Positions 13,954-55,022 of a stretch of DNA of 64,000 nt are shown piece after piece (within the stretch, counting starts at the first letter, position 1; every line of letters starts with the position of its first letter). The stretch is from Candidatus Omnitrophota bacterium (GTDB lineage: Bacteria > Omnitrophota > Gorgyraeia > Aquiviventales > Aquiviventaceae). A program made the position numbers and the translations under genes. The notes beneath the pieces were generated by a model. That model ran no database searches and had not been told where the DNA came from. It saw only the letters and a list, made by a program, of their open reading frames with translations. The stretch is from NCBI GenBank assembly GCA_023247275.1, contig JAHFGT010000002.1, forward strand, positions 25,961 through 89,960, read 5' to 3'.

Positions 13954-13978
13954 GCCTTAGAACACCTCGCTTTTCTTT

Positions 13979-14043
13979 GTGAACGGTTGACGGTGTACGG
14001 TGTACAGGGTCAGTACCGTACACCGTGAACTGTACACCGTCCA
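13979..14043. repeat. Octamer-unit palindromic element (family 1, copy b)
   Basis: GTGAACGGTTGACGGTGTACGGTGTACAGGG tcag TACCGTACACCGTGAACTGTACACCGTCCAC, between pheA and hisC. Confidence 0.75.
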
Positions 14044-14060
14044 CTCTCGGCCAACTATGC

Positions 14061-14918: not shown

Positions 14919-15218
14919 TCAGACGAGCGGCCTGCGTCGATGCGAGCGCTCGCGTCGGCGGCACTCGCACAGGATCGCCTGGAACACGTGTTGGATCGCC
15001 CTCGTAGAGAGAGGGCCGCGATTGGCCCGCATGACATGCTGCAGCACAAATGTCTCGCGCCGCGCATCGAACACCGGCCATTTGCGCTGTTTCTTGATCC
15101 GGCCGATGTCCAGGGCAAGACGGGCGCGCTGATTCAGTCCTCGCAACAGGTCGAGGTCAAGCCGATCGATTCGTCGACGGACCGCAGCGAGCGTCGAACG
15201 CGGTGTCTTAGGCGGCAT
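14919..15218 (-). CDS. Chorismate mutase (AroQ type)
   Basis: MPPKTPRSTLAAVRRRIDRLDLDLLRGLNQRARLALDIGRIKK... The ATG at 15218 overlaps the scpB 3' end by 11 nt. Confidence 0.75.
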   Translation of the reverse strand: MPPKTPRSTLAAVRRRIDRLDLDLLRGLNQRARLALDIGRIKKQRKWPVFDARRETFVLQHVMRANRGPLSTRAIQHVFQAILCECRRRERSHRRRPLV

Positions 15219-15819
15219 TCGCCGCCTCAGGGCTGGCTGGCACCCCGCCAGCAACCTCAGGAACGGGCTCAGAGGCTGGTTCAGCCGTTGTCGGCTCTTG
15301 CAGCGTCGGAATCTGCATCGCCGGCAGCGCTCCGAGCGACTTCAGACCAAAATGCCGCAGGAACTCGACGGTCGTCGCGTACAGAAACGGGCGGCCTGGG
15401 CTGTCCTTGCGTCCGGCCGTGCGGACAAACCGCCGCTCCATTAGCGTCTCCAACGCGGCGGTCACATCCACACCACGGATCGCCTCAATCTCCGCTTTGG
15501 TCATCGGCTGGCGATACGCAATGATCGCCAAGGTTTCTAACGCCGCGGTGCTCACCGAATCCGGCTTGGGGGTTTGCAAGGCTCGCCGAATCCATGGAGC
15601 GAGCTGCTGGTCGGTCACCAGCTGGTACCCGCCGGCCACTTCCTGAATCTGAAACGCGCGCGCACCGGATGTGTACTCGTTCTGCAATGCCTGGATCAGC
15701 CGGCGGACCTGCTGGCCCTCGATCGACTCCAGCACCTCGGCCAGCCGCTTGAGCGATATCGGCTGTCCAAACACGAAGAGAATGGCTTCAAGAATCCGCT
15801 TGGCTTCTGCCTGGTCCAT
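15208..15819 (-). CDS. scpB: Segregation and condensation protein B
   Basis: MDQAEAKRILEAILFVFGQPISLKRLAEVL... begins at ATG 15819, inside ORF 15208-15939. It has an acidic, Pro-rich C-terminal tail. Confidence 0.85.
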   Translation of the reverse strand: MDQAEAKRILEAILFVFGQPISLKRLAEVLESIEGQQVRRLIQALQNEYTSGARAFQIQEVAGGYQLVTDQQLAPWIRRALQTPKPDSVSTAALETLAIIAYRQPMTKAEIEAIRGVDVTAALETLMERRFVRTAGRKDSPGRPFLYATTVEFLRHFGLKSLGALPAMQIPTLQEPTTAEPASEPVPEVAGGVPASPEAANAA

Positions 15820-15840
15820 GACCCCTCCACAGAAAATTCT

Positions 15841-15904
15841 CGGTGTGCGGTGTGGGGGATGCGGTGTAGGAAAACACGCCGCACACCTCTCACTCCACAC
15901 CGAG
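15841..15904. repeat. Hairpin element built of 7-bp CGGTGTG units (family 3)
   Basis: CGGTGTG CGGTGTG GGGGATG CGGTGTA GG aaaa CACGCCG CACACCT CTCACTC CACACCG AG. The right arm overlaps the last codons and stop of scpA. Confidence 0.75.
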
Positions 15905-16627
15905 TGTAGCTCTTGGCATTTCTTGCAGGGCGATGACAATATCTGAAAATGGGTGCTCCTGGATCGCGCGCGCGAGATGCTGGCGAATCAATTCCAGCAG
16001 CGCCAAGAATGTGACCACTAGTTCGAGCTTGGACTTGTCCGGCGTAAACAGCTCGAGAAACCGCACCTGCTGCCGCACGGTCAACAGCACGCGCAGCTGA
16101 TGCACTTTCATTTCAACGGTCCACGGCTCGGCGGCCACCTCATACACTGGAGCGGTCGCTTTCTGGAGCACCTTGGCGAACGCGCCCATCAGGTCGGTCA
16201 GGCTCACATCGAACGGCGCCGGCTCAATGGCCGGCCCCTCGTCCGGTAGCTCAGCCCCTGCGCGGATAAAATGCTGGTGTTGCAACATGTGCAACTCTGC
16301 CAGCAACTGTGCGACCGTCTTAAACTGCTCGTACTCCTTTAGCCGGCGCTCCAGCTCTTCCAGGCTGATGGGCACGTCTTCTTTCTCACCCGGTGTCGCC
16401 GGCTGGGGCAACACACTCCTAGCCTTGAGCGCAACCAACTGCCCCAACAGCGGTAGCGGCTCGGCGAGTTGATTCAAATCAACCCCAGACTGCTTGACTT
16501 GGACGAGGTAGTGGCCGGTCAGGTCGACGAGCTTGATGAGAAACACGTCGACGAGGTTGAGCCTTGCCAGCTCCACCAGCAGCGGGAGCGGACCCTCGTA
16601 AATATCCGCGTCGATCTGGTAGGGCAT
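15890..16627 (-). CDS. scpA: Segregation and condensation protein A
   Basis: 245-aa ORF with a kleisin ScpA pattern (YEGPLPLLVELARLNLVDVF...). Confidence 0.85.
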   Translation of the reverse strand: MPYQIDADIYEGPLPLLVELARLNLVDVFLIKLVDLTGHYLVQVKQSGVDLNQLAEPLPLLGQLVALKARSVLPQPATPGEKEDVPISLEELERRLKEYEQFKTVAQLLAELHMLQHQHFIRAGAELPDEGPAIEPAPFDVSLTDLMGAFAKVLQKATAPVYEVAAEPWTVEMKVHQLRVLLTVRQQVRFLELFTPDKSKLELVVTFLALLELIRQHLARAIQEHPFSDIVIALQEMPRATLGVE

Positions 16628-17626
16628 CTATTGACCAATGAGTCCGAAGGCCGCCTTCACTTCAGTGATGGTGTGGCGCGCGACACTCCGGGCCTTCTCC
16701 GCGCCGGCCTGGAGCATGCCTTCAATCTCATCGTATGATCCGCCGATCTTCGCCCGGATCTGACGAAACGGTTCGGTCGCCTGCACGATCACCTCGGAGA
16801 GTTCGCGCTTGTTTTGCACGCAGCCTCGGATCGATCGCCGGCACTCGTCGTGCGCGCGGGCCGCCGCGCTGGGCGCAAACGTGCCCCAGTAGCCGCACAC
16901 GTTGCACGTGTCTGGATGGCCAGGATCGGTCATCTTGATCCGAGCCGGGTCGGTGAACATCTTCTCGACGATGGCGCGGATCTTCTCCGGTGCCTCGGAC
17001 AGGTTGATCGTGTTGCCATAACTCTTCGACATCTTGCGCCCATCGGTCCCAGAGAGTCTGGGCGATTCGGTCAACAGTGCCGAGGGTTCAGGAAAGATCT
17101 CGCGCTTGAATAGGAAGTGCACTCGACGCACGATCTCTCGCGTCAATTCCACATGCGGTAACTGATCTTCCCCCACCGGCACCGCCTGGGCCTTGTACAG
17201 CAAGATATCCGCCGCTTGCAGCACCGGGTAGCCTAAAAACCCATAGGTCGTGAGATCTCGTCCCTCGATCTCGCGTAGCTGTTCCTTATAGGTCGGGACC
17301 CGTTCAACCCAGCCCAGCGGCGTCACAATCGAGAGCAGGGCAAACAGCTCGGTATGCTCTGGCACATCCGACTGCCGAAAGATCACACTGCGCTGTGGGT
17401 CGATCCCACAGGCCAGCCAGTCGAGCACATTCTCATAGCTCCAGGTGTGGATCTGCTGCGGCCGCTCATATTCGCTCATGAGCGCGTGGTAGTCCGCGAC
17501 CATGAAGAAACAGTCGTACCGCTCTTGCAGCCGTTTCCAATTCTGGAGCGCGCCGACCAGATGGCCGAGGTGCAGCTGGCCGGTCGGCCGCATCCCGCTC
17601 ACGACGCGCTGACGCTGCTCAGACAT
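16628..17626 (-). CDS. trpS: Tryptophan--tRNA ligase
   Basis: 332-aa ORF with HLGHLVG (HIGH) and KMSKS motifs. Confidence 0.95.
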   Translation of the reverse strand: MSEQRQRVVSGMRPTGQLHLGHLVGALQNWKRLQERYDCFFMVADYHALMSEYERPQQIHTWSYENVLDWLACGIDPQRSVIFRQSDVPEHTELFALLSIVTPLGWVERVPTYKEQLREIEGRDLTTYGFLGYPVLQAADILLYKAQAVPVGEDQLPHVELTREIVRRVHFLFKREIFPEPSALLTESPRLSGTDGRKMSKSYGNTINLSEAPEKIRAIVEKMFTDPARIKMTDPGHPDTCNVCGYWGTFAPSAAARAHDECRRSIRGCVQNKRELSEVIVQATEPFRQIRAKIGGSYDEIEGMLQAGAEKARSVARHTITEVKAAFGLIGQ

Positions 17627-17960
17627 GAGACAGGAGACCGGAGACTACATGCGCCCCCAAAGGCACTGTAACATTCTGGGCGCATGTACCCTGAGCGAAG
17701 TCGAAGGGTAACCCCTCGACGCGCTTTGCTTGCTCGGGGTAAAGGGAACCCTCTCGATGTTCAGATGCAATGTGGGTTCCATTTAGAGACCAGACACACC
17801 ATCGGGGGGCACGCAGGAAGGACACGCGTCTCACCACGTCTTCATAGCAGACCAAGATGACACATGCAGGGCAAGACCAGAGCAACCATAGAGCTGTTAC
17901 GCCGTCGATCTTCCAGAACTTGTCTTTTTTAAGTCTCCGGTCTCTGGTCTCCGGTCTGAT
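17627..17960. repeat. Composite element: inverted GAGACNG heptamer arrays flanking a 285-bp hairpin-rich spacer
   Basis: The left array is GAGACAG GAGACCG GAGACTA (17627-17647). The right array is GTCTCCG GTCTCTG GTCTCCG GTCTGAT (17933-17960). Internal stems are ACATGCGCCC/GGGCGCATGT (17647-17687), CCCTGAGCGAAGTCGAAGGG/CCCCTCGAC..GCTCGGGG (17689-17739) and GGAACCC/GGGTTCC. Confidence 0.75.
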
Positions 17961-22157: not shown

Positions 22158-23879
22158 CTACGACGATGCAAAGTTGTCAAGCAGTTTATGGATTTGCGCC
22201 GGGAGGAGCTCCTCGCTGACCCGTTGTTTTTCCTTCGTGGCGCGCAGGCACAGTTCCAGTTGGCGCGCTTGTTGCCATGCCTTGCCGACGACCACCTGCA
22301 CCGGAATTCCGACCAGGTCAGCGTCCTTAAGCTTGCTCCCTGGCGATTGGTCCCGATCGTCCAGCAGCACCGCCAGTCCGGCGTGGGATAACTGCTGCTC
22401 AACCCGCTCGGCCACCTGAACCGCTTCGGCGTTTTGCGTGTCCATGATGCTCACGATCACCTCCATGGGGGCTAAGGCACGCGGCCAGACAATCCCCTGC
22501 TCATCATGGTGTTGCTCAATCGCGGTCGCCACGATCCGGTTCATCCCGATGCCGTAGCACCCCATCATCATCGGCTTGAGTTGCCCGGCCGGATCCTGAA
22601 ACACCGCACCCAGCGCTTGACTATATTTCGTGCCCAACTTGAACACATGACCGACTTCGATCGTGCGCACAAACGTGAGTGGGCCGCTGCAGGTTGGGCA
22701 CCTGTCCGCCTCGGTCACGACCCGAACATCCGCCACGATCGATGGCTGGAAATCCCGTCCTGGATTGACGTTGGTGTGATGCGCGTCGGTGATATTCGCC
22801 CCGGTCACCGCGTTGACGACCCCCATCACCGCATGATCGGCGATCAACCGCACATTCAGCAACTTCACCGGCCCGGCAAACCCGACCGGGGCGCTGGTCA
22901 GTCGCTCAATCGTTTGGGCGCTCGACAGCCGAATGTCGGGCGATCCAATCGCACGCGCGAGCTTGGCTTCATTGACTTCATGGTCTCCGCGAACCAACAC
23001 CGCCACATGGCCGTTGTCCACATCATAGACCAGCGTCTTGATCAACTGCCTCGCTGGCACCTTGAAGAACTGGCTGACCTGCTCGACCGTGTGCTGCCCT
23101 GGCGTCTTCACCGTCTCCATCGGCTGTTGGACTTCTGCTGTCTGCTGTCTGCTGTCTGCTGTCTGCTGGTACCTCGCCGCCTCCAGATTCGCCGCATAGC
23201 CGCAGGTCTGGCACTGCACCACCCGGTCTTCGCCATACGCTGACGGCGCCATGAACTCGTGCGATACCTCCCCACCCATCATGCCTGGATCCGCCTCGCA
23301 CGCCAGCACAGTCAGCCCGCATCGCCTGAAGATCCGGTGATAGGCGTCAGACATGATCTGGTAGCTGCGATTGAGGCCATCGACGTCCACATCAAAGCTG
23401 TAGGCGTCTTTCATCAGGAATTCTTTGGAACGGATAATCCCAAACCGGGGACGAGGCTCATCGCGGAACTTGTGTTGGATCTGGTACACCGTCATCGGCA
23501 ACTGCTTGTACGAACGGACCTCTTTGAGCAAATCGGTGACCACTTCCTCGTGCGTCGGGCCCAGCGCCACCTCTTTGCCGGTGCGATCCTTGAACCGGAT
23601 CAGCACATCGCCCAGCACGCTGTACCGGCCGGTCTGTTTCCACAACTCCACCGGCTGCATCGCCGGCATCAACAGCTCCTGGGCCCCGGCCTGGTCCATC
23701 TCCTCGCGCACGACGGCCGCCGCCTTGTGCAACGCGCGCAACCCCAACGGCAGGTAGGTGTACGCCCCAGCGCCCAGCCGGCGGATCAATCCAGCCCGCA
23801 TCATCAGCTTATGGCTGATCGCCTCAGAGTCCTTCGGGTCCTCGCGTAGCGTCGGCAGAAAGTAGTGTGACCAGCGCAT
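22158..23879 (-). CDS. proS: Proline--tRNA ligase (bacterial type with INS editing domain)
   Basis: MRWSHYFLPTLREDPKDSE... begins at ATG 23879. It has class II motifs and an editing insertion. The ORF track starts 3 codons earlier, at GTG 23888. Confidence 0.95.
   Translation of the reverse strand: MRWSHYFLPTLREDPKDSEAISHKLMMRAGLIRRLGAGAYTYLPLGLRALHKAAAVVREEMDQAGAQELLMPAMQPVELWKQTGRYSVLGDVLIRFKDRTGKEVALGPTHEEVVTDLLKEVRSYKQLPMTVYQIQHKFRDEPRPRFGIIRSKEFLMKDAYSFDVDVDGLNRSYQIMSDAYHRIFRRCGLTVLACEADPGMMGGEVSHEFMAPSAYGEDRVVQCQTCGYAANLEAARYQQTADSRQQTAEVQQPMETVKTPGQHTVEQVSQFFKVPARQLIKTLVYDVDNGHVAVLVRGDHEVNEAKLARAIGSPDIRLSSAQTIERLTSAPVGFAGPVKLLNVRLIADHAVMGVVNAVTGANITDAHHTNVNPGRDFQPSIVADVRVVTEADRCPTCSGPLTFVRTIEVGHVFKLGTKYSQALGAVFQDPAGQLKPMMMGCYGIGMNRIVATAIEQHHDEQGIVWPRALAPMEVIVSIMDTQNAEAVQVAERVEQQLSHAGLAVLLDDRDQSPGSKLKDADLVGIPVQVVVGKAWQQARQLELCLRATKEKQRVSEELLPAQIHKLLDNFASS
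23135..23169. repeat. Five tandem CTGCTGT heptamers inside proS (coding strand CAGCAGA)
   Basis: CTGCTGT x4 plus CTGCTGG, translated as QQTADSRQQTAE in a variable ProRS linker. The same unit recurs in kdsB (57810-57837). Confidence 0.85.
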
Positions 23880-24009
23880 CAGCCCCACATCCAGTCGGGA
23901 AGGTCAGAATCAATATCATCGGGGATCAGCCGTTGATCTTCATCTCGCCGGCAAATCATCGCAAACGTACGGCTCCAGCCCAGGCGTAGTTGTCGATTTG
24001 ATCCTCGGT

Positions 24010-24933: not shown

Positions 24934-26121
24934 CTATTTGCTCTGCGAGGCTGCCACAGCTTCTTCGTGGTGGAGCACTCGCTTGACTTCGTCGATGAGC
25001 GCGTCGACCATGTCGGCCTCGGCGACGCGGCGCAGCTGCTGGCCTTTGCGGTAGATCACCCCGACCCCGCCGCCGCCGGCTAAGCCGATGTCCGCGTGCT
25101 CAGATTCCCCTGGCCCGTTCACGACACAGCCCATGACGGCCACCGTCAGCTCGAGACAGCGAGGCTCGGTCGTGGACAACTCGGTCAGCCGCTGCTGCAC
25201 CTGCTTGGCGATCCCAACCACATCGATCTCACACCGACCGCATGACGGGCACGCGATCACGTTGGTTTCAAACCGCCGCAGCTCCAGCGACGACAGAATG
25301 CGCTGCGCGATCTTCACTTCATCGACCGGATCGCCGGTGATCGAGACGCGGATCGTATCCCCGATCCCCTCAGCCAGCAAGGCGCCGATCCCGATCGACG
25401 ATTTCACCGTCGAGGAATCCAACAAGCCGGCCTCGGTCACGCCCAGGTGGAACGGGTAGTCGCACAGTTGCGCCATGCGCCGATACGCGGCCAGCATCTG
25501 GCGCACGTCGGACGATTTAAGCGACAGCACGATCTCAGAGAATCCGAACCCTTCCAGCAGCCGAACCGACTTCAAGGCGCTCTGGACAATGGCTTCCACG
25601 AGGTTGCCCCGGTGCGCCGCCTCACACTCGGGATCCAGCGAGCCGACATTGACACCGATGCGGATGGGAATCCCCCGCTCCTTGGCCCGATCAACCACTT
25701 CGCGCACCCGCTCGGTGTTGCGGATGTTGCCTGGGTTCCAGCGAATTTTATCGAACCCAGCCTCGATGGCGGCGATGGCAAACTGTGGATGGAAATGGAT
25801 ATCAGCGACCAGCGGCACCTTGTTGGCTTCGCGTCGGATGTCCGGCAACACCTTGGCCGCTTCAATCGTCGGCACCGCCACGCGGACAATCTCGCATCCA
25901 GCGGTGGCCAGCGCCCGGATCTGCCGCACGGTCGCCTCCACGTCGGTCGTATCGGTCTTGGTCATCGACTGGATCGAGACCGGCGCGTCCCCGCCGATGG
26001 TGATTCCACCGACTCGGACTGGTCTGGTCTGCCGACGCGCAGGACTGCGCAATGGAGTGATCACCCCGGCTGGGTCAACTGCGGGAGGGATGGACTGGTT
26101 CGACGTGGTCTGGCGGCTCAT
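24934..26121 (-). CDS. ispG: 4-hydroxy-3-methylbut-2-enyl-diphosphate synthase
   Basis: 395-aa ORF with a TIM-barrel part plus a C-terminal 4Fe-4S domain (ACPSCGRC). Confidence 0.95.
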   Translation of the reverse strand: MSRQTTSNQSIPPAVDPAGVITPLRSPARRQTRPVRVGGITIGGDAPVSIQSMTKTDTTDVEATVRQIRALATAGCEIVRVAVPTIEAAKVLPDIRREANKVPLVADIHFHPQFAIAAIEAGFDKIRWNPGNIRNTERVREVVDRAKERGIPIRIGVNVGSLDPECEAAHRGNLVEAIVQSALKSVRLLEGFGFSEIVLSLKSSDVRQMLAAYRRMAQLCDYPFHLGVTEAGLLDSSTVKSSIGIGALLAEGIGDTIRVSITGDPVDEVKIAQRILSSLELRRFETNVIACPSCGRCEIDVVGIAKQVQQRLTELSTTEPRCLELTVAVMGCVVNGPGESEHADIGLAGGGGVGVIYRKGQQLRRVAEADMVDALIDEVKRVLHHEEAVAASQSK

Positions 26122-32891: not shown

Positions 32892-34559
32892 CTATAATTT
32901 GATGAGTTTCGCATCCAGCACATGCGTGAGCGTCTTGACCCGGTCCAGCACGTTGGGCGGCACAGGCTGGTCGATATTCACAACCGTGATCGCCGTACCT
33001 CCGGGCGCATCGCGGCCGTTGGTCATCCCGGCGATGTTGATGTTCGACTCCCCCAAGAGCGTTCCGAGCTGGCCGATGAGCCCAGGCTTGTCCTGATTCT
33101 TAATGATCAACATGTACCCTTCTGGCGTGGCCTCGACGAAGTAGCGGTCGATCTTCACGATTCGCGGTTCGCGGCGCGCGGACAACGTGCCCTGCAACAC
33201 CAGGGTTCGGCCGTCATCCCTCGACTGGCTTCGCTCGCTCGGGATGATCCTGAGCGAGTCCCCGCCCATGGCGGGGCGAGTCGAAGGATCATTGCGGACC
33301 TCGACCGACAGCAAATTGGCAAACTCCTCCGGCCGGTTGGACTTCGCCTCGATGACCTTGACCCCCCGCTCTGCGGCGATCAGCGATGCATTGACGTAGT
33401 TGACGTTTTCGCCGACCATCGGCTGCAGCACACCTTTCAAGATCGCCAAGGTGATCGGCGAGGTGTCGTACGCGGTCACTTCTCCCACGTAGGTGACGCG
33501 GACCTCGGCGATCTGCCCGCCGATCAATTGCGCGGTGAGTGACCCCAGCCGCTCACCCAGCAGAATATACGGCTGCAGCACCTTGAGCGTCTGCGCGTCC
33601 AGCGATGGCATATTGACCGCATTGCGGATCCCGCGGCCCAGCAAGGCATCGGCCACCTGCTTCGCGACGTCGATGGCCACGTTGAGCTGTGCTTCTTGCG
33701 TCGAGGCGCCCAAATGCGGTGTGCACACCACCTGATCGAGCGCCACCAGCGGATGATCTTTCGCCGGCGGCTCCTGCTCGAACACATCGATCGCCGCACC
33801 GGCCACCTGGCCACTGGTGATCGCCGCGTGCAGCGCCTGCTCATCGATGATTCCACCGCGCGCGCAATTGATCAGCCGCACGCCCGGCTTCATCAGCGCG
33901 AACTGCGGCGTGCTGATCAGATGGCGCGTCTCCTCGGTGAGCGGGGTGTGCACGGTGATGATATCCGCCTCACGATACAGCGGCTCCAGCTCCATCATCT
34001 GCACATCGAGCTGTTGGGCCCGTTCCGTCGATAAAAACGGATCATACGCGATGACCCGCATCCCGAACACCTGCGCCCGTTTGGCCACCTCGGTCCCGAT
34101 CTTGCCCATGCCGACGATCCCGAGCGTTTTGCCGAACAGCTCGACCCCGACGAATTTGGACCGCTCCCACAACCCAGCCTTGAGACTGGCCTGGGCTTGG
34201 GGAATGCGTCGGGCTAAGGCAAGGATCATGCTGCAGGTATGCTCGGCGGTGGAGATCGTATTTCCGGCCGGCACGTTCATGACGATGATACCGCGTTTGG
34301 TGGCTGCATCGGCGTCGACGTTATCCAACCCGACGCCAGCGCGGCCGATCACCTTGAGGTGAACGGCCCGTTCAATCACTTCGGCCGTGACTTTGGTGGA
34401 GCTGCGGACGACTAGGCCTTCATACGGCTCGATGATCTGCGCCAGCTCTTTGCTGGATAGGCCGGTCTTGATGTCCACCGCCAGGCCGGATTCTTGGCGT
34501 AACAGCTTGATTCCATCGTCGGAGAGTTGATCAGCGATCAGGACACGGATTGGCGCCAT
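32892..34559 (-). CDS. serA: D-3-phosphoglycerate dehydrogenase (long form with ASB and ACT domains)
   Basis: MAPIRVLIADQLSDDGIKLL... begins at ATG 34559, inside ORF 32892-34649. It has the NAD motif GIVGMGKIG and a C-terminal ACT domain. It carries a roughly 24-aa insertion (see findings). Confidence 0.9.
   Translation of the reverse strand: MAPIRVLIADQLSDDGIKLLRQESGLAVDIKTGLSSKELAQIIEPYEGLVVRSSTKVTAEVIERAVHLKVIGRAGVGLDNVDADAATKRGIIVMNVPAGNTISTAEHTCSMILALARRIPQAQASLKAGLWERSKFVGVELFGKTLGIVGMGKIGTEVAKRAQVFGMRVIAYDPFLSTERAQQLDVQMMELEPLYREADIITVHTPLTEETRHLISTPQFALMKPGVRLINCARGGIIDEQALHAAITSGQVAGAAIDVFEQEPPAKDHPLVALDQVVCTPHLGASTQEAQLNVAIDVAKQVADALLGRGIRNAVNMPSLDAQTLKVLQPYILLGERLGSLTAQLIGGQIAEVRVTYVGEVTAYDTSPITLAILKGVLQPMVGENVNYVNASLIAAERGVKVIEAKSNRPEEFANLLSVEVRNDPSTRPAMGGDSLRIIPSERSQSRDDGRTLVLQGTLSARREPRIVKIDRYFVEATPEGYMLIIKNQDKPGLIGQLGTLLGESNINIAGMTNGRDAPGGTAITVVNIDQPVPPNVLDRVKTLTHVLDAKLIKL
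33218..33287. repeat. Hairpin element (family 5) embedded in frame in serA
   Basis: CCCTCGACTGGCTTCGCTCGCTCGGG ... CCTGAGCGAG TCCCCGCCCATGGCGGGG CGAGTCGAAGG. The arm motifs match the intergenic hairpin at 17689-17739. Confidence 0.7.
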
Positions 34560-44403: not shown

Positions 44404-46019
44404 CAGCGACGCTGGCAGCTCAGCCGAAATTCCACCAGCTCCTCGTTCGTGCCGACCCGTCGGGTCGACCCTAGCTGCACATCACGGCACAGGCTGGACT
44501 GCTCGAGCCACAAGGCAAAACTGGAGACGGTCGAATCTGGGGTCTGCTCGCGTCCCTGCGCTTCGCCGGTCATGGCCACGCGCCCGTCGGGCTGAATGGC
44601 TAACGAGGCTAACCGCACCGCGCTGGGAAATCCCTGCGCCAGTCGCCGAAACCACGAGGGTGGGATTCCGTGCGCAGTGACTAATTGCTCCATGAGATGC
44701 GTGTGATGCTCGATCGTGTGCTGCAGCGTCACCAGCGGCTGGATGGCAATCCACCGATCGTTGACCGCTGCCAATTGTCGACTCATCCGGTGCGCTTGGA
44801 TCCCCTGCCAACCAAGACCCAACCACAGCCCCACCGTCAGGACCATGAAGAGCGCGCTGAGCAGCGCCGCAACGCGCCACCATTGTCGTCGCTGGCGAAA
44901 CAGCGGCATGTGCAAATCTAACTCGCTCGGACGACCCAGCAGCGCCAATCCGCACGCGACAGCAGCAGCCGCACCTGCGGCGCCGACCAATGGTTCGCAC
45001 GACAGTCGCGTCACCGGCACGCCAAGCTGTTGAGCAAACCAGCGATCGCTGTGTGGAATCCGCGACCCATCCCCACTGATCAGCAGACGCTGTGGCAGCG
45101 TTGACACGGTGGTCTGCGCACCAAACGTCATGGTCCGGCGCAGCTCACTGACCAGCTGCTCAAGGATGGGCTGAAGGATTGAGAAATACATCGTGGCCGA
45201 CACCTGACCGCCAACCCCCTCGAAGGACATCGATTCCGCGACCCCAGCCTCGGCTGACAGCGGCACAGAGGGTTGCGGGCTCGCCGGCAGACCGAGCCGC
45301 TCAATCAATGTCGCCGCCTCGGCGAGGGAGATGGAGCCTCCGCCTTGATCGGCAAGCCCGTGCACCAGCGCCTCGCAGACATGGCGCATCCCCAGGCTCA
45401 CGTCCCGGGCATAGATCGGTTCGCCGGAATCGACCAACACCATGGTCGTGCGCTCGCCGCCCATCTCCATCATCACCATCGCGTCCTTGTCCACAACGCC
45501 AAGGGTTTTACCGACCGTGACCAGAGCGACGGCCGACGGCACGACAGCGCTGGGAATCCACCCAGCCTGCCACAGCGCCTCGAGCTGCTGCTGCAGCGCA
45601 GCTTGTTCGCACGCGGCCACCACGACATCGCATTCCAGCTGGTCGGCCATCCGCTGCTGGCGTCGCAGTTGGAACGCGACCTGTCCCTGTTCAGCGTCAA
45701 ACGGCAACAGGGGAGGCAACCGGTCCTGCACCGCGGCGGATAATTGGCTTGGCTCATCGATTCGCACGGTCACGCTCCGAATCAACCCCAGCGGTGCTGC
45801 CAGGACGATCTGGGCCGTGAGCCGATCCCGCCGCAGCGGCTGGAGCAGCCTGGCCAGCCGCTGAGCGATCGCATCCGAATCAGCCACATCATTCAAGGCT
45901 TGCTCGCCATACCACCATCGCCGCCGGCCCTGGTGTTCGATGAGTTGGGTGACCCGCACCGCCATCGGGCTGAATTCGATTCCAATCCGCACCCGGGGAG
46001 TGTGCATGGAATGAATCAC
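44403..46019 (-). CDS. PilM-PilN fusion (GspL-like) assembly protein
   Basis: 538 aa with an N-terminal actin-like PilM domain of about 350 aa, a TM helix (WWRVAALLSALFMVLTVGLWLGLGW), and a PilN-like periplasmic part. The GTG start overlaps the upstream stop (GTGA). Confidence 0.7.
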   Translation of the reverse strand: MIHSMHTPRVRIGIEFSPMAVRVTQLIEHQGRRRWWYGEQALNDVADSDAIAQRLARLLQPLRRDRLTAQIVLAAPLGLIRSVTVRIDEPSQLSAAVQDRLPPLLPFDAEQGQVAFQLRRQQRMADQLECDVVVAACEQAALQQQLEALWQAGWIPSAVVPSAVALVTVGKTLGVVDKDAMVMMEMGGERTTMVLVDSGEPIYARDVSLGMRHVCEALVHGLADQGGGSISLAEAATLIERLGLPASPQPSVPLSAEAGVAESMSFEGVGGQVSATMYFSILQPILEQLVSELRRTMTFGAQTTVSTLPQRLLISGDGSRIPHSDRWFAQQLGVPVTRLSCEPLVGAAGAAAAVACGLALLGRPSELDLHMPLFRQRRQWWRVAALLSALFMVLTVGLWLGLGWQGIQAHRMSRQLAAVNDRWIAIQPLVTLQHTIEHHTHLMEQLVTAHGIPPSWFRRLAQGFPSAVRLASLAIQPDGRVAMTGEAQGREQTPDSTVSSFALWLEQSSLCRDVQLGSTRRVGTNEELVEFRLSCQRR

Positions 46020-46711
46020 GGGATTCGAATCGCAACAGACGACCGCATGGATTGACTCGCCTGACCTGCCTCAAACACGCCATTGCCGGTTTGCACGACC
46101 ATCGCCACATCAACGCGGCGGATCGCCGGATCAGGGGGGCAGGCCGGCGTCAGCAACGCACCGGCCTGATTGCGATACTGAAACATCGGACCTGACGCCA
46201 GCACGCGGGCGCTGCCCAGCGCGTCATACGGCACCAGCTCCTCGGTCGGCCCGGCCGGCACGCTGGCACACGTGGTCCCAGCCGGCACCAACGCCCGCGC
46301 AAGAGCCGCGTTGATCGTGTTCAGGCGCACCAGCACCAGTTGGCCATCAGAGCTCACATATCCCACCCGAACATCCTCGGTCAGCCACAGCGCCGGTTGA
46401 AGCCCGGTCCCGCCGAGCGGCACCCGGCGGATCGCAAAGCGCAAACCACGGATAGGATCAGCCTGGCCTGGCAGCGTCGAGAATCCCCCTTCGATCAGTT
46501 GCTGCATCACCTCAGCGGCGACATGGTCGGTGGCAACCGCCTTGGGCACAAATACCAGTGTCCGCACGCCGAAGAGAATGATTGGCGGTACCAAGGCAAA
46601 CAGCACTCCGGCAATCACCAGCACGAGCACCAGCTCTGGTAAGGTCCATCCCCCTTGACATCGACCGGCAAGAACTGATTCGTGTACGGGTGAACAGGTG
46701 TACGGGTGCAC
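46016..46711 (-). CDS. Minor (pseudo)pilin; start uncertain
   Basis: Class III signal ...RCQGG|WTLPELVLVLVIAGVLFAL, with Glu at +5. The nearest in-frame canonical start is GTG 46711, inside repeat 46677-46776. The ORF track starts at 46822. Confidence 0.6.
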   Translation of the reverse strand: MHPYTCSPVHESVLAGRCQGGWTLPELVLVLVIAGVLFALVPPIILFGVRTLVFVPKAVATDHVAAEVMQQLIEGGFSTLPGQADPIRGLRFAIRRVPLGGTGLQPALWLTEDVRVGYVSSDGQLVLVRLNTINAALARALVPAGTTCASVPAGPTEELVPYDALGSARVLASGPMFQYRNQAGALLTPACPPDPAIRRVDVAMVVQTGNGVFEAGQASQSMRSSVAIRIP

Positions 46712-46776
46712 GGGTCGTCGATCCGCAGGTGTTGGCGATCCGTCCACCTGTTCACCGGTACACTTGTTCACGAATC
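46677..46776. repeat. Octamer-unit palindromic element (family 1, copy c) with terminal inverted repeats
   Basis: GATTCGTGTACGGGTGAACAGGTGTACGGGTGCACGGG ... CCACCTGTTCACCGGTACACTTGTTCACGAATC. The first 32 nt are identical to the copy at 53978. Confidence 0.8.
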
Positions 46777-46826
46777 GAGTTCCCTGGGAAGCAGGGCCCT
46801 GCCTGCGAGAGGACCATCGCATAGCG

Positions 46827-53356: not shown

Positions 53357-53422
53357 AAATCGGGGACAGCCACTCATTTCCCTATGTGAGGTTTCTAGGA
53401 AATGAGTGGCTGTCCCCGATTT
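53357..53422 (-). terminator. 25-bp perfect inverted repeat abutting the kdsC stop (terminator/insulator)
   Basis: AAATCGGGGACAGCCACTCATTTCC, a 16-nt loop, then GGAAATGAGTGGCTGTCCCCGATTT, with T-runs on both sides. Confidence 0.55.
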
Positions 53423-53965: not shown

Positions 53966-53977
53966 GTCACGATATTC

Positions 53978-54055
53978 GATTCGTGTACGGGTGAACAGGT
54001 GTACGGGTGGTCATTCGCAGCTGAACAACCCGTACACCTGTACACCCGTTCACGG
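53978..54055. repeat. Octamer-unit palindromic element (family 1, copy d)
   Basis: GATTCGTGTACGGGTGAACAGGTGTACGGGTGG ... CCCGTACACCTGTACACCCGTTCACGG, between kdsD and kdsC. Confidence 0.8.
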
Positions 54056-54062
54056 TTCTTCT

Positions 54063-55022
54063 CTAGAATCCAGCCCGCAACAGATCCTGCACATCCAGCA
54101 GCCCGACCGGGCGGCGGTCTTGGTCAACGACGACCAATTCGTCGATCCGGTACTCTCGTAGCAGCCGGGCGGCTTCAGCAGCCAATCGGTCTGCTGAGAT
54201 GGTTTTTGGATTGCGGGTCATGACCGCACGCACCGGCCGGTCGACCAATCCTGGGTCGGTGTCGAAATGCCGGCGTAAATCCCCGTCGGTGAAAATACCG
54301 GCCAGTCGACCCTTGGAATCCACGATACTCGCGCTGCCGGCGCGCGCCTTGGTGATGGCCAAGAGCACCTTTTTCACGCGCGCGGTGTCCCGCAATACCG
54401 GATGCGACGCGCGGGTGCGCATCAGATCCGACACCTTGAGCAGCAGCCGACGGCCAAGTTGTCCACCAGGATGCAGCAGCGCGAAATCGCGCTCCTTAAA
54501 TCCCTTGCGCTCAGCCACGACTACCGCCAATGCATCGCCCATGGCTAACATGGCGGCCGTCGACGCGGTCGGCGCCAAATTGAGCGAGCACGCTTCCCGC
54601 TTCACGCTGACATCCAACGTCACATCGGCATGTTGGGCCACCGTCGAGCGCGGATGACCGGTCAATCCAATGAGCCGGGCGCCGATCTGCTTGATCACCG
54701 GCAACAGCCGAGTGAGCTCCTCGGTTTCCCCGCTGTTCGACAGCGCAATGACCACGTCATCTTTGGTGATCCGACCGACGTCACCATGGATCGCCTCAGC
54801 CGGATGGACCCAATGGCTCGGCGTCCCGGTGGAGGCCAGCGTCGCGGAGATTTTCTGGCCGATGACGCCGGCCTTGCCCATCCCAGTGACCACCACCCGG
54901 CCCTTGCAACTCACCACCGTCTCGACCGCGGCCTCAAACGAGGCGCCCACTCGCGGGATCAATCCGCGAATCGCCTCAGCCTCAATCTTCAACACGTCTT
55001 TCGCGCGCCGGATGCTCATCAC
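54063..55022 (-). CDS. kdsD: Arabinose-5-phosphate isomerase (SIS plus two CBS domains)
   Basis: 319 aa with the SIS motif VVVTGMGKAG and tandem C-terminal CBS domains. Confidence 0.9.
   Translation of the reverse strand: MMSIRRAKDVLKIEAEAIRGLIPRVGASFEAAVETVVSCKGRVVVTGMGKAGVIGQKISATLASTGTPSHWVHPAEAIHGDVGRITKDDVVIALSNSGETEELTRLLPVIKQIGARLIGLTGHPRSTVAQHADVTLDVSVKREACSLNLAPTASTAAMLAMGDALAVVVAERKGFKERDFALLHPGGQLGRRLLLKVSDLMRTRASHPVLRDTARVKKVLLAITKARAGSASIVDSKGRLAGIFTDGDLRRHFDTDPGLVDRPVRAVMTRNPKTISADRLAAEAARLLREYRIDELVVVDQDRRPVGLLDVQDLLRAGF

Follow-up and report, generated by a model that had tools for sequence, protein, structure and literature searches.

The stretch of 64,000 nucleotides analysed here (the window; positions 25,961 to 89,960 of contig JAHFGT010000002.1, Candidatus Omnitrophota bacterium) contains a serA gene whose product, a long-form D-3-phosphoglycerate dehydrogenase (PGDH), is lengthened by an in-frame palindromic insert (Table 1). 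The four Pfam domains of the protein (2-Hacid_dh, 2-Hacid_dh_C, PGDH_inter and ACT) are all complete, and a protein identical to it (P0001) is present in public assemblies. The extra codons are placed between ...SVEVRN and DGRTLVLQG... and have no counterpart in 114 of the 120 closest SerA orthologues (67-83% identity). These read ..VRSDG.., with the junction between S and D, and the DNA of their empty sites is AGT GAT GGC or AGC GAT GGC (AGY GAT GGC). The orthologue alignment bounds the insertion at one codon, at which 6 of the 120 proteins carry an insert. The SerA insert is thus a real insertion, and the observation made in an earlier note on this DNA is confirmed. That note had counted about 24 extra residues, one fewer than the 25 found here, and had delimited them at 33218-33287, the interval that marks the outer stem of the insert (CCCTCGAC...GTCGAAGG). 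It had also named a short loop at this place in the PGDH of M. tuberculosis. Indeed, HMMER aligns the latter (1YGY) with residues 6-410 and 448-541 of the query; the gap between the two segments falls precisely at the insert and holds 37 query residues versus 13.

On the plus strand, which is antisense to serA, the filled site reads GTC^[ATCCCTCGACtggCTTCGCTCGCTCGGGAT]G[ATCCTGAGCGAGtCCCCGCCcatGGCGGGGcgaGTCGAAGGAT]C^ATT, and filled and empty sites differ by the element and at most one duplicated nucleotide. The CGTC tetranucleotide that abuts the element is its presumed target or cleavage site. The 75-nt insert is open in five of the six reading frames.

The insert is composed of two arms that resemble repetitive extragenic palindromes (REPs), each followed by one spacer base. 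Judged by its sequence, two copies of a REP-like unit of about 30 nt, (Y)GTC-[ATCCC GAGCGAGCGAAGCGAGTCGA GGGAT], are joined in it head to head; of the single palindromic element described earlier the palindromy stands, and the singleness does not. Folded as RNA, the insert forms an outer stem (CCTTCGAC/GTCGAGGG) and two inner hairpins, CCCCGCC-aug-GGCGGGG and CUCGCUCAGG-aucau-CCCGAGCGAG (in DNA letters, the second inner stem pair is CTCGCTCAGG/CCCGAGCGAG). The nesting noticed before is well beyond expectation: the RNA fold has -52 kcal/mol and z = -4.5, none of 200 shuffles equals it, and the DNA fold has z = -3.8. The R-type arm holds the mini-hairpin motif GCGAAGC at its centre and is closed by a foot of 5 bp (ATCCC/GGGAT); the foot of the L-type arm, likewise 5 bp, is ATCCT/AGGAT. 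The L-type architecture with a nested apical hairpin recurs in two other serA loci (L002 and L004) and in an Ignavibacteriae copy (L024). The nested hairpin itself is variable, being different in L002 and L004 and lacking in the serA locus L003.

The earlier note had matched the arms to those of an intergenic hairpin at 17689-17739. The serA insert and this element share two stems, which are circularly permuted and nested in the opposite way. An nhmmer profile was made of 126 copies of the unit taken from other phyla only and was searched against the window. It returned 17709-17742 (E = 8.7e-10) and 33216-33247 (E = 2.6e-9), with no third match below E = 5, and simple motif searches of the window likewise gave no copies beyond these two. 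The match between the two elements therefore exceeds chance, and the serA insert is a statistically secure member of a family that is represented in foreign genomes.

Table 1. Features of the serA insert and of its intergenic relative (positions in the window)
Feature	Position	Strand	Description	Basis
serA (D-3-phosphoglycerate dehydrogenase, long form)	32892..34559	-	555 aa from MAPIRV	reading frame intact
In-frame insertion	33216..33290	-	75 nt = 25 codons, encodes DPSTRPAMGGDSLRIIPSERSQSRD	orthologue comparison
CGTC tetranucleotide	33212..33215	+	directly 5' of the element on the plus strand (serA antisense)	sequence
R-type arm	33216..33245	-	ATCCC GAGCGAGCGAAGCCAGTCGA GGGAT (minus strand)	nhmmer with other-phyla profile, E = 2.6e-9; 26-nt pattern match
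L-type arm	33247..33289	-	ATCCT TCGAC tcg (nested hairpin) a CTCGCTC AGGAT	sequence
Nested apical mini-hairpin	33260..33276		CCCCGCC-cat-GGCGGGG, inside the L-type arm	folds
Intergenic dimer	17689..17739	-	R arm, then L arm	nhmmer, E = 8.7e-10; fold, z = -2.7
142-nt composite	17645..17786	-	three hairpins including the 17689 dimer, upstream of trpS	conserved in other loci

Distribution of the unit across phyla and genes

Three elements have a half-motif of 26 nt (CCCGAGCRAGCRRAGCNNGTCGAGGG) in common: the arm in serA, the insert that the serA of a different species (L003) carries, and the element at 17689. In a scan of representative genomes, one per species, it was matched in at least 120 genome stretches from at least 11 phyla. 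Among the hosts are Gemmatimonadota (in which individual metagenome-assembled genomes, MAGs, hold many copies), Acidobacteriota, Planctomycetota, Omnitrophota, Ignavibacteria, Bacillota, Coriobacteriia, several Patescibacteria, Eremiobacterota-like MAGs and Proteobacteria. Bacteroidota are also among them, including an isolate, Sediminibacterium magnilacihabitans DSM 22423, with three copies. The relatives of the serA host are labelled Omnitrophota or NC10.

The common context of the unit is tGTCAT-CCCGAGCGAGCGAAGCGAGTCGAGGG-ATCTGCAC, which occurs alone or with GTGCAGATCCCTCGACTYCGCTCGGGATGAC on either side. NGTC precedes 84 of the 126 arms (TGTC in 58, CGTC in 16), and the commonest tail is CTGC (43/126), in place of which the serA arms have one spacer base. 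The outer two pairs of the foot covary among the 126 arms: AT/AT was found 59 times, AC/GT 12 times, GC/GT 7 times, GC/GC 5 times and GT/AC 3 times, which implies that the ends of each arm pair with each other. The canonical arm contains no stop codon in any of its six frames.

The unit is also found within long open reading frames (ORFs) whose identity was confirmed by Pfam, namely those for initiation factor 2 (IF-2), LepA, a class I tRNA synthetase, SMC, EutA and two transporters of the major facilitator superfamily (MFS). The IF-2 copy, which lies in the GTPase domain (L126, 4217-4242), and the LepA copy (L082, 7023-7048) belong to a single Patescibacteria MAG, H52-bin078_1; the tRNA synthetase copy is from a Jorgensenbacteria MAG, the SMC copy from a gammaproteobacterial and the EutA copy from an acidobacterial one. 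The IF-2 insert is bordered by a direct repeat of 7 nt (CCCGAAG), in which the serA site differs from it. The two MFS transporters are orthologues from two Gemmatimonadaceae MAGs (L017, 1925-1950; L118, 818-888) in which one and the same loop holds a dimer in one case and a trimer in the other, and thus constitute a second case, besides serA, of one site occupied in related genes. The claim of a repeated palindrome residing in frame in a housekeeping gene is borne out by the intact serA frame and by these copies of the same unit in IF-2, LepA and other genes.

Searches of plasmid and phage collections with the canonical dimer gave no match, and in IMG/VR a single match was found in 2.9 million contigs. 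The unit thus has no obvious carrier among phages and sequenced plasmids. With Rfam nothing meaningful was obtained, either for the whole window at gathering thresholds or for 33100-33400 at E up to 10. No paper with the sequence of the unit was found in the searched library, outside of which a description may exist, and of the REP, RPE (Rickettsia palindromic element) and MITE (a miniature transposable element with inverted repeats) literature found by concept none describes it.

Larger units were seen in two groups of hosts. In the Gemmatimonadaceae loci L014, L015, L028, L054 and L091 the arms often have one more sequence in common behind them, ..cgctgcgccgcagtttcacgcggagcacgcggag.., an indication that the repeat is composite in these hosts. 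The contig of a low-GC Firmicute, a Peptoniphilus MAG (L021, 3075-4195), contains three arms in 1.1 kb, each with an identical flank of about 50 nt after it, a flank which hints that a larger unit is being repeated.

Repeated occupation of one serA codon

Five more orthologues (P0002, P0003, P0006, P0027 and P0047) have an insert at the identical serA codon, with a length of 54-132 nt (18-44 residues). All carriers' inserts consist of an L arm, one spacer base and an R arm, and differ in the apical parts; their encoded ends are the same, starting with D-PST and finishing with S-SRD-DG. CGTC^ or a one-base variant of it is found at all five filled serA sites. The feet show compensatory changes, reading ACCCC/GGGGT and GTCCC/GGGAC in L002 and L003 versus ATCCT/AGGAT and ATCCC/GGGAT in the window.

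When the 120 SerA proteins are placed in a neighbour-joining tree, which is a single-gene tree and weakly resolved, the carriers are scattered over five positions. P0027 and P0047 form the one sister pair, and the nearest neighbours of the other carriers have no insert. The arms of L001 and L003 match the 26-nt cross-phylum consensus perfectly, and the proteins in which they reside have diverged by about 20%. We lean on the latter ground towards the view that the unit was inserted several times independently beside one CGTC, with the tolerance of the enzyme as the filter, a preference that is tentative and to which we would give slightly less than an even chance. The gene has about 22 CGTC sites, both strands taken together; the same codon would be occupied repeatedly if few of the YGTC sites of the compact SerA protein tolerate 18-44 extra residues. 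If the hits are independent, they offer a natural test of target choice and of insertion-tolerant sites in proteins. The recurrence at one codon may also stem from exchange of serA segments between species.

The competing account of the history, which leaves the identity of the element as it is, we consider less likely. It supposes one old insertion in a distant ancestor that was inherited, remodelled (by gain of arms, nested hairpins and growth to 132 nt) and precisely lost many times by slippage across the hairpin. The six inserts do share codon, phase and the order of L and R arms, and L001, L002 and L004 have the nested CCCGCC/GGCGGG hairpin in the same arm; this variant, however, is also seen in the unrelated Ignavibacteriae copy, and hence is no unique mark of shared descent. 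Fast remodelling at an occupied site is shown by the sister alleles L004 and L005, of 69 and 132 nt, and is in line with the dimer and trimer in one loop of the Gemmatimonadaceae MFS orthologues. Losses are conceivable as well, palindromes being prone to deletion (discussed in PMC3733652). Yet the carriers are not monophyletic, as far as the weakly resolved single-gene tree goes, such that many independent and exact losses would be required, and the perfect consensus arms of L001 and L003 fit a recent arrival or copy correction better than a long neutral residence.

A profile of the six insert-bearing segments, used to search for more carriers, returned only short insert-free serA fragments. 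A metagenome scan with the right-hand serA junction gave two loci that were already known and one further contig, L131 (JGI, Joint Genome Institute, contig Ga0209878_1010788, 1-1280). On L131 a topoisomerase-like N-terminal part (..YLAPDPDREGEAISWHL..) leads into a dimer of the family, after which the 3' part of serA continues in another frame. The contig is probably an assembly chimera formed at the repeat, or else a frameshifted allele. Units of this type can cause chimeric metagenome contigs, and they also create spurious ORFs (with VIPSERSESRDL and SLRSLGMT peptides).

Nature of the insert and its relation to known repeats

Taken together, the serA insert is in all likelihood a non-autonomous palindromic repeat of REP-like type, present as a head-to-head dimer, that entered serA after an antisense CGTC, is read through as a tolerated loop and persists as a selfish or neutral passenger. 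Its length, a multiple of three, and the nearly stop-free unit make it most likely that it is read through and translated as a disordered loop of 25 residues that the enzyme tolerates. In an AlphaFold2 model (mean predicted local distance difference test, pLDDT, 76.9) residues 427-448 have a pLDDT below 50 and lie between the strands 416-423 and 452-459. The insert is accordingly modelled as a loop, as the earlier note had wanted to see examined; it is predicted, at low confidence, to be a surface loop that caps a beta-hairpin of the intervening (ASB) domain. It is best regarded as a passenger and not as an adaptation of SerA.

Several points weigh against this reading. Under standard energy rules a lone arm gains nothing over shuffled sequence (z = +0.3 to +1.3), so that the case for pairing within a single arm depends on two covarying base pairs and on a non-canonical core that is itself a proposal. 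Within the 64-kb window there are two copies only, and the translation of the insert is itself deduced from the sequence. As to an enzyme that might move the unit, tblastn with RAYT (REP-associated tyrosine transposase) and IS608 TnpA gave no match in 0.94 Mb of loci plus the window, which is a weak negative. When 1,629 ORFs from the vicinity of arms were clustered, they yielded no recurrent protein family, only GC-rich spurious ORFs. The account of one old insertion, treated above, likewise counts against the history proposed here.

For the core of the arm we propose a GCGAAGC mini-hairpin combined with tandem G.A pairs from the flanking GA steps. The motif d(GCGAAGC) forms an unusually stable mini-hairpin in DNA (review PMC13037366). 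The likeness lies in the GCGAAGC at the centre of the R-type arm and the GA/GA steps beside it, which possibly form tandem sheared pairs; the difference is that d(GCGAAGC) is a structural motif and not a genetic element, and its formation within the arms is a proposal.

The unit would most likely move as single-stranded hairpin DNA, with a transposase of the HUH/Y1 type (RAYT or IS200/IS605-like) that is supplied in trans and cleaves and inserts it beside YGTC. This type of movement we suggest with less confidence than the translation of the insert and its nature as a tolerated passenger. The bases ATGA, CGAC and GAY were considered as a target-site duplication and rejected, since they covary with partners within each arm. 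An intein or self-splicing intron is dismissed since 25 residues or 75 nt are far too small, and the insert has no Pfam domain and no Rfam match.

The closest known kind of element is the group of CGTC-tagged REPs, as defined by Di Nocera, De Gregorio & Rocco 2013 (PMC3733652). These have an unpaired CGTC or TGTC tag at one end and a stem that starts with A-T and T-A, mostly form head-to-head dimers, occur in five phyla, lack a dedicated transposase and include in-frame copies of 20-30 residues in housekeeping genes (PMC3733652). RPE-4 and RPE-6 of Rickettsia (R. conorii) and dRS3 of Neisseria were assigned to the same group (PMC3733652), which supports the RPE-like reading given by the earlier note. 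The likeness extends to the shared tag and stem foot, (C/T)GTC followed by AT(T)CCC...GGG(A)AT, with ends of the form GTC-AT(T)CC...GG(A)AT: CGTC abuts the serA arm on the plus strand, the stem starts with A-T and T-A and continues with CCC, and both window arms are of the form AT...AT. Inverted dimers (the serA insert and the 17689 element), in-frame genic copies and a distribution over several phyla are further common features. Among the in-frame peptides listed for the group (VIPAKAGI, SFPRKRES, LDSRFRGND, VIPGLDPGIH...; PMC3733652), VIPAKAGI and LDSRFRGND correspond to VIPSERSESRD and SLRSLGMT here, whereas none of those listed matches the peptide of the serA unit. There are also differences: the stem of the CGTC-tagged REPs is regular, has 8-9 bp and encloses 4-5 nt of loop, in contrast to the foot of 5 bp around a conserved core of 16-20 nt (GAGCGAGCGAAGCGAGTCGA) in the present unit, and their tail, three bases with the consensus CCA at the untagged end, is CTGC here. 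In its way of working the insert is thus classed with intragenic REPs and RPEs; it is probably related to the CGTC group at a distance, and is not a proven member of any of the four families CGTC-1 to CGTC-4.

The resemblance to the RPEs themselves is one of description, and a link to them exists by way of the CGTC superfamily only (PMC3733652). Like an RPE, the serA insert is a repeated palindrome in frame, in an intact and presumably functional gene and at a predicted tolerated loop; unlike the RPEs, its family is GC-rich, spread over many phyla and, in this case, found in an uncultured host. Elements of the RPE-1 type are reportedly repeated palindromes that lie in frame in genes for functional proteins, are translated at a tolerated place and have no obvious target duplication; they are said to exceed 100 bp and to be confined to Rickettsia. 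The related elements in five other non-sister serA lineages do not speak against the RPE-like reading, since the family is ubiquitous.

Another well-known system is that of REPINs and RAYTs, in which GTAG-tagged REPs are accompanied by a REP-associated tyrosine transposase and are usually genus-specific. It shares with the present family the short hairpin units, the inverted dimers, the dispersed and non-autonomous nature and the supposed movement as single-stranded hairpins. The tag, however, is YGTC here and not GTAG, the unit is nearly identical across phyla, and the search described above, a weak negative, found no RAYT-like gene near the copies. Elements derived from IS200/IS605 and intragenic MITEs are comparable in that they are small, end in hairpins and now and then lie in frame within genes, and insertion 3' of a fixed tetranucleotide without duplication is in the style of IS200/IS605. 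A classical MITE has terminal inverted repeats and duplicates at least 2 bp of its target site; the serA element lacks this combination, with at most 1 nt duplicated. We know of no parent insertion sequence for the serA-type unit. Precedents of the intragenic MITE type are the QMITEs of Coxiella (PMC5896051) and the enterobacterial RU elements (PMC2759123; reviewed in PMC10969869).

Apart from the question of history, three other explanations of the insert were considered. An improbable one holds that the structure is kept for its own sake, i.e. that the hairpin is a cis-acting RNA or DNA signal in serA maintained by selection on the nucleic-acid fold, such as a point between the ASB and ACT domains at which translation pauses, a site of mRNA stability or processing, or a protein-binding site as proposed for REPs. 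The fold is strong, related inserts persist in several lineages and the serA inserts keep their pairing by compensatory changes while the peptides differ. The same covariation, however, is observed at unrelated sites in other phyla, which makes it a property of the element and not of serA. Moreover, 95% of the close orthologues do without an insert, no Rfam family is matched, and neither strand has a T run after the hairpin, such that it is not an intrinsic terminator.

Still less probable, to our mind, is an adaptive protein loop, in which the 25 residues would be a selected extension of the regulatory region of SerA and the palindromy would be incidental. Its appeal comes from the position of the insert, as we take the domain that holds the loop to bind allosteric ligands in the PGDH of M. 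tuberculosis (1YGY), and from the ends DPST...SRD, which are found in all carriers. These conserved ends, however, are exactly those encoded by the DNA stem CCYTCGAC/GTCGAGGG, the interior (18 to 44 residues) is not conserved as protein and is modelled with a pLDDT below 50, and the same DNA is present at intergenic sites and, in all reading frames, in unrelated genes.

An artefact, be it a misassembly at the repeat or a dead copy of serA, is hardly credible: repeats can confuse assemblers, as is illustrated by L131 (1,280 nt) with its out-of-frame joint of a topoisomerase-like 5' part and a serA 3' part, but here the frame is intact and the domains are complete, the aminotransferase-serA-purA synteny of the window is that of the relatives, a separate ENA contig is identical over 4,530 nt, and in-frame inserts reside at the same codon in five other assemblies.

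In-frame palindromic repeats constitute a rare route by which selfish DNA lengthens proteins directly, and are best known from Rickettsia and a few proteobacteria. With serA such a case is found in an uncultured, GC-rich lineage. The phenomenon as such is already known; what is unusual is the reach of the unit across phyla and the repeated occupation of one serA codon. The unit is nearly unchanged between very distant phyla and sits inside genes as constrained as those for IF-2 and LepA in the tiny genomes of Patescibacteria. It is conceivable, although we are somewhat doubtful, that the serA insert is one case of an undescribed multi-phylum repeat with a core of about 30 nt that hardly varies over a range of hosts from Gemmatimonadota and Acidobacteriota to Patescibacteria, Bacillota and Bacteroidota, that resides in frame in serA, infB, lepA, a tRNA synthetase gene and smc, and that struck the serA codon independently in several lineages. 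If true, this would mean that insertion is directed to sites beside YGTC and that a vehicle or enzyme yet to be identified carries the unit from phylum to phylum.

The 142-nt composite and other repeats of the window

The 17689 dimer forms the middle part of a composite of 142 nt, of which the outer hairpins are CTAAATGGAACCC..GGGTTCCATTTA and TAAATGCGCCC..GGGCGCATTTAG. Both ends of the composite have CTAAATG in common, in inverted orientation, and trpS (16628-17626) lies downstream of it. The composite is kept, with compensatory changes, in seven other loci (L012, L022, L043, L050, L095, L099 and L104), whose host MAGs bear the labels Omnitrophota, Planctomycetales or 'bacterium'. No Rfam family matches the composite, which could be either a MITE or a structured RNA.

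The proS gene (22158-23888) encodes a prolyl-tRNA synthetase with a Q-rich stretch (..AARYQQTADSRQQTAEVQQPMETV..). The arm profile has no match in proS, and any insert in this gene therefore belongs to another family.

A second hairpin repeat family, unrelated to the first, consists of GTGTACGGGTGAACAGGTGTACGG-like units with strong folds at 521-610, 13965-14054, 46685-46774 and 53975-54064. One GTGTACGGGTGAACAGGTGTACGG-type copy overlaps the annotated 5' end of an ORF without Pfam match (46016-46822). Strong hairpins were also observed at 1281-1370 and 15839-15904, one being of the TCTGACCTCTGA-type repeats and the other GGTGTGCGGTGTGGGG...; the latter is located at the overlap of the ORFs of scpA (15890-16627) and scpB (15208-15939). 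Finally, the strongest hairpin of the window is a perfect inverted repeat of 25 bp (AAATCGGGGACAGCCACTCATTTCC) with a loop of 16 nt at 53357-53422.

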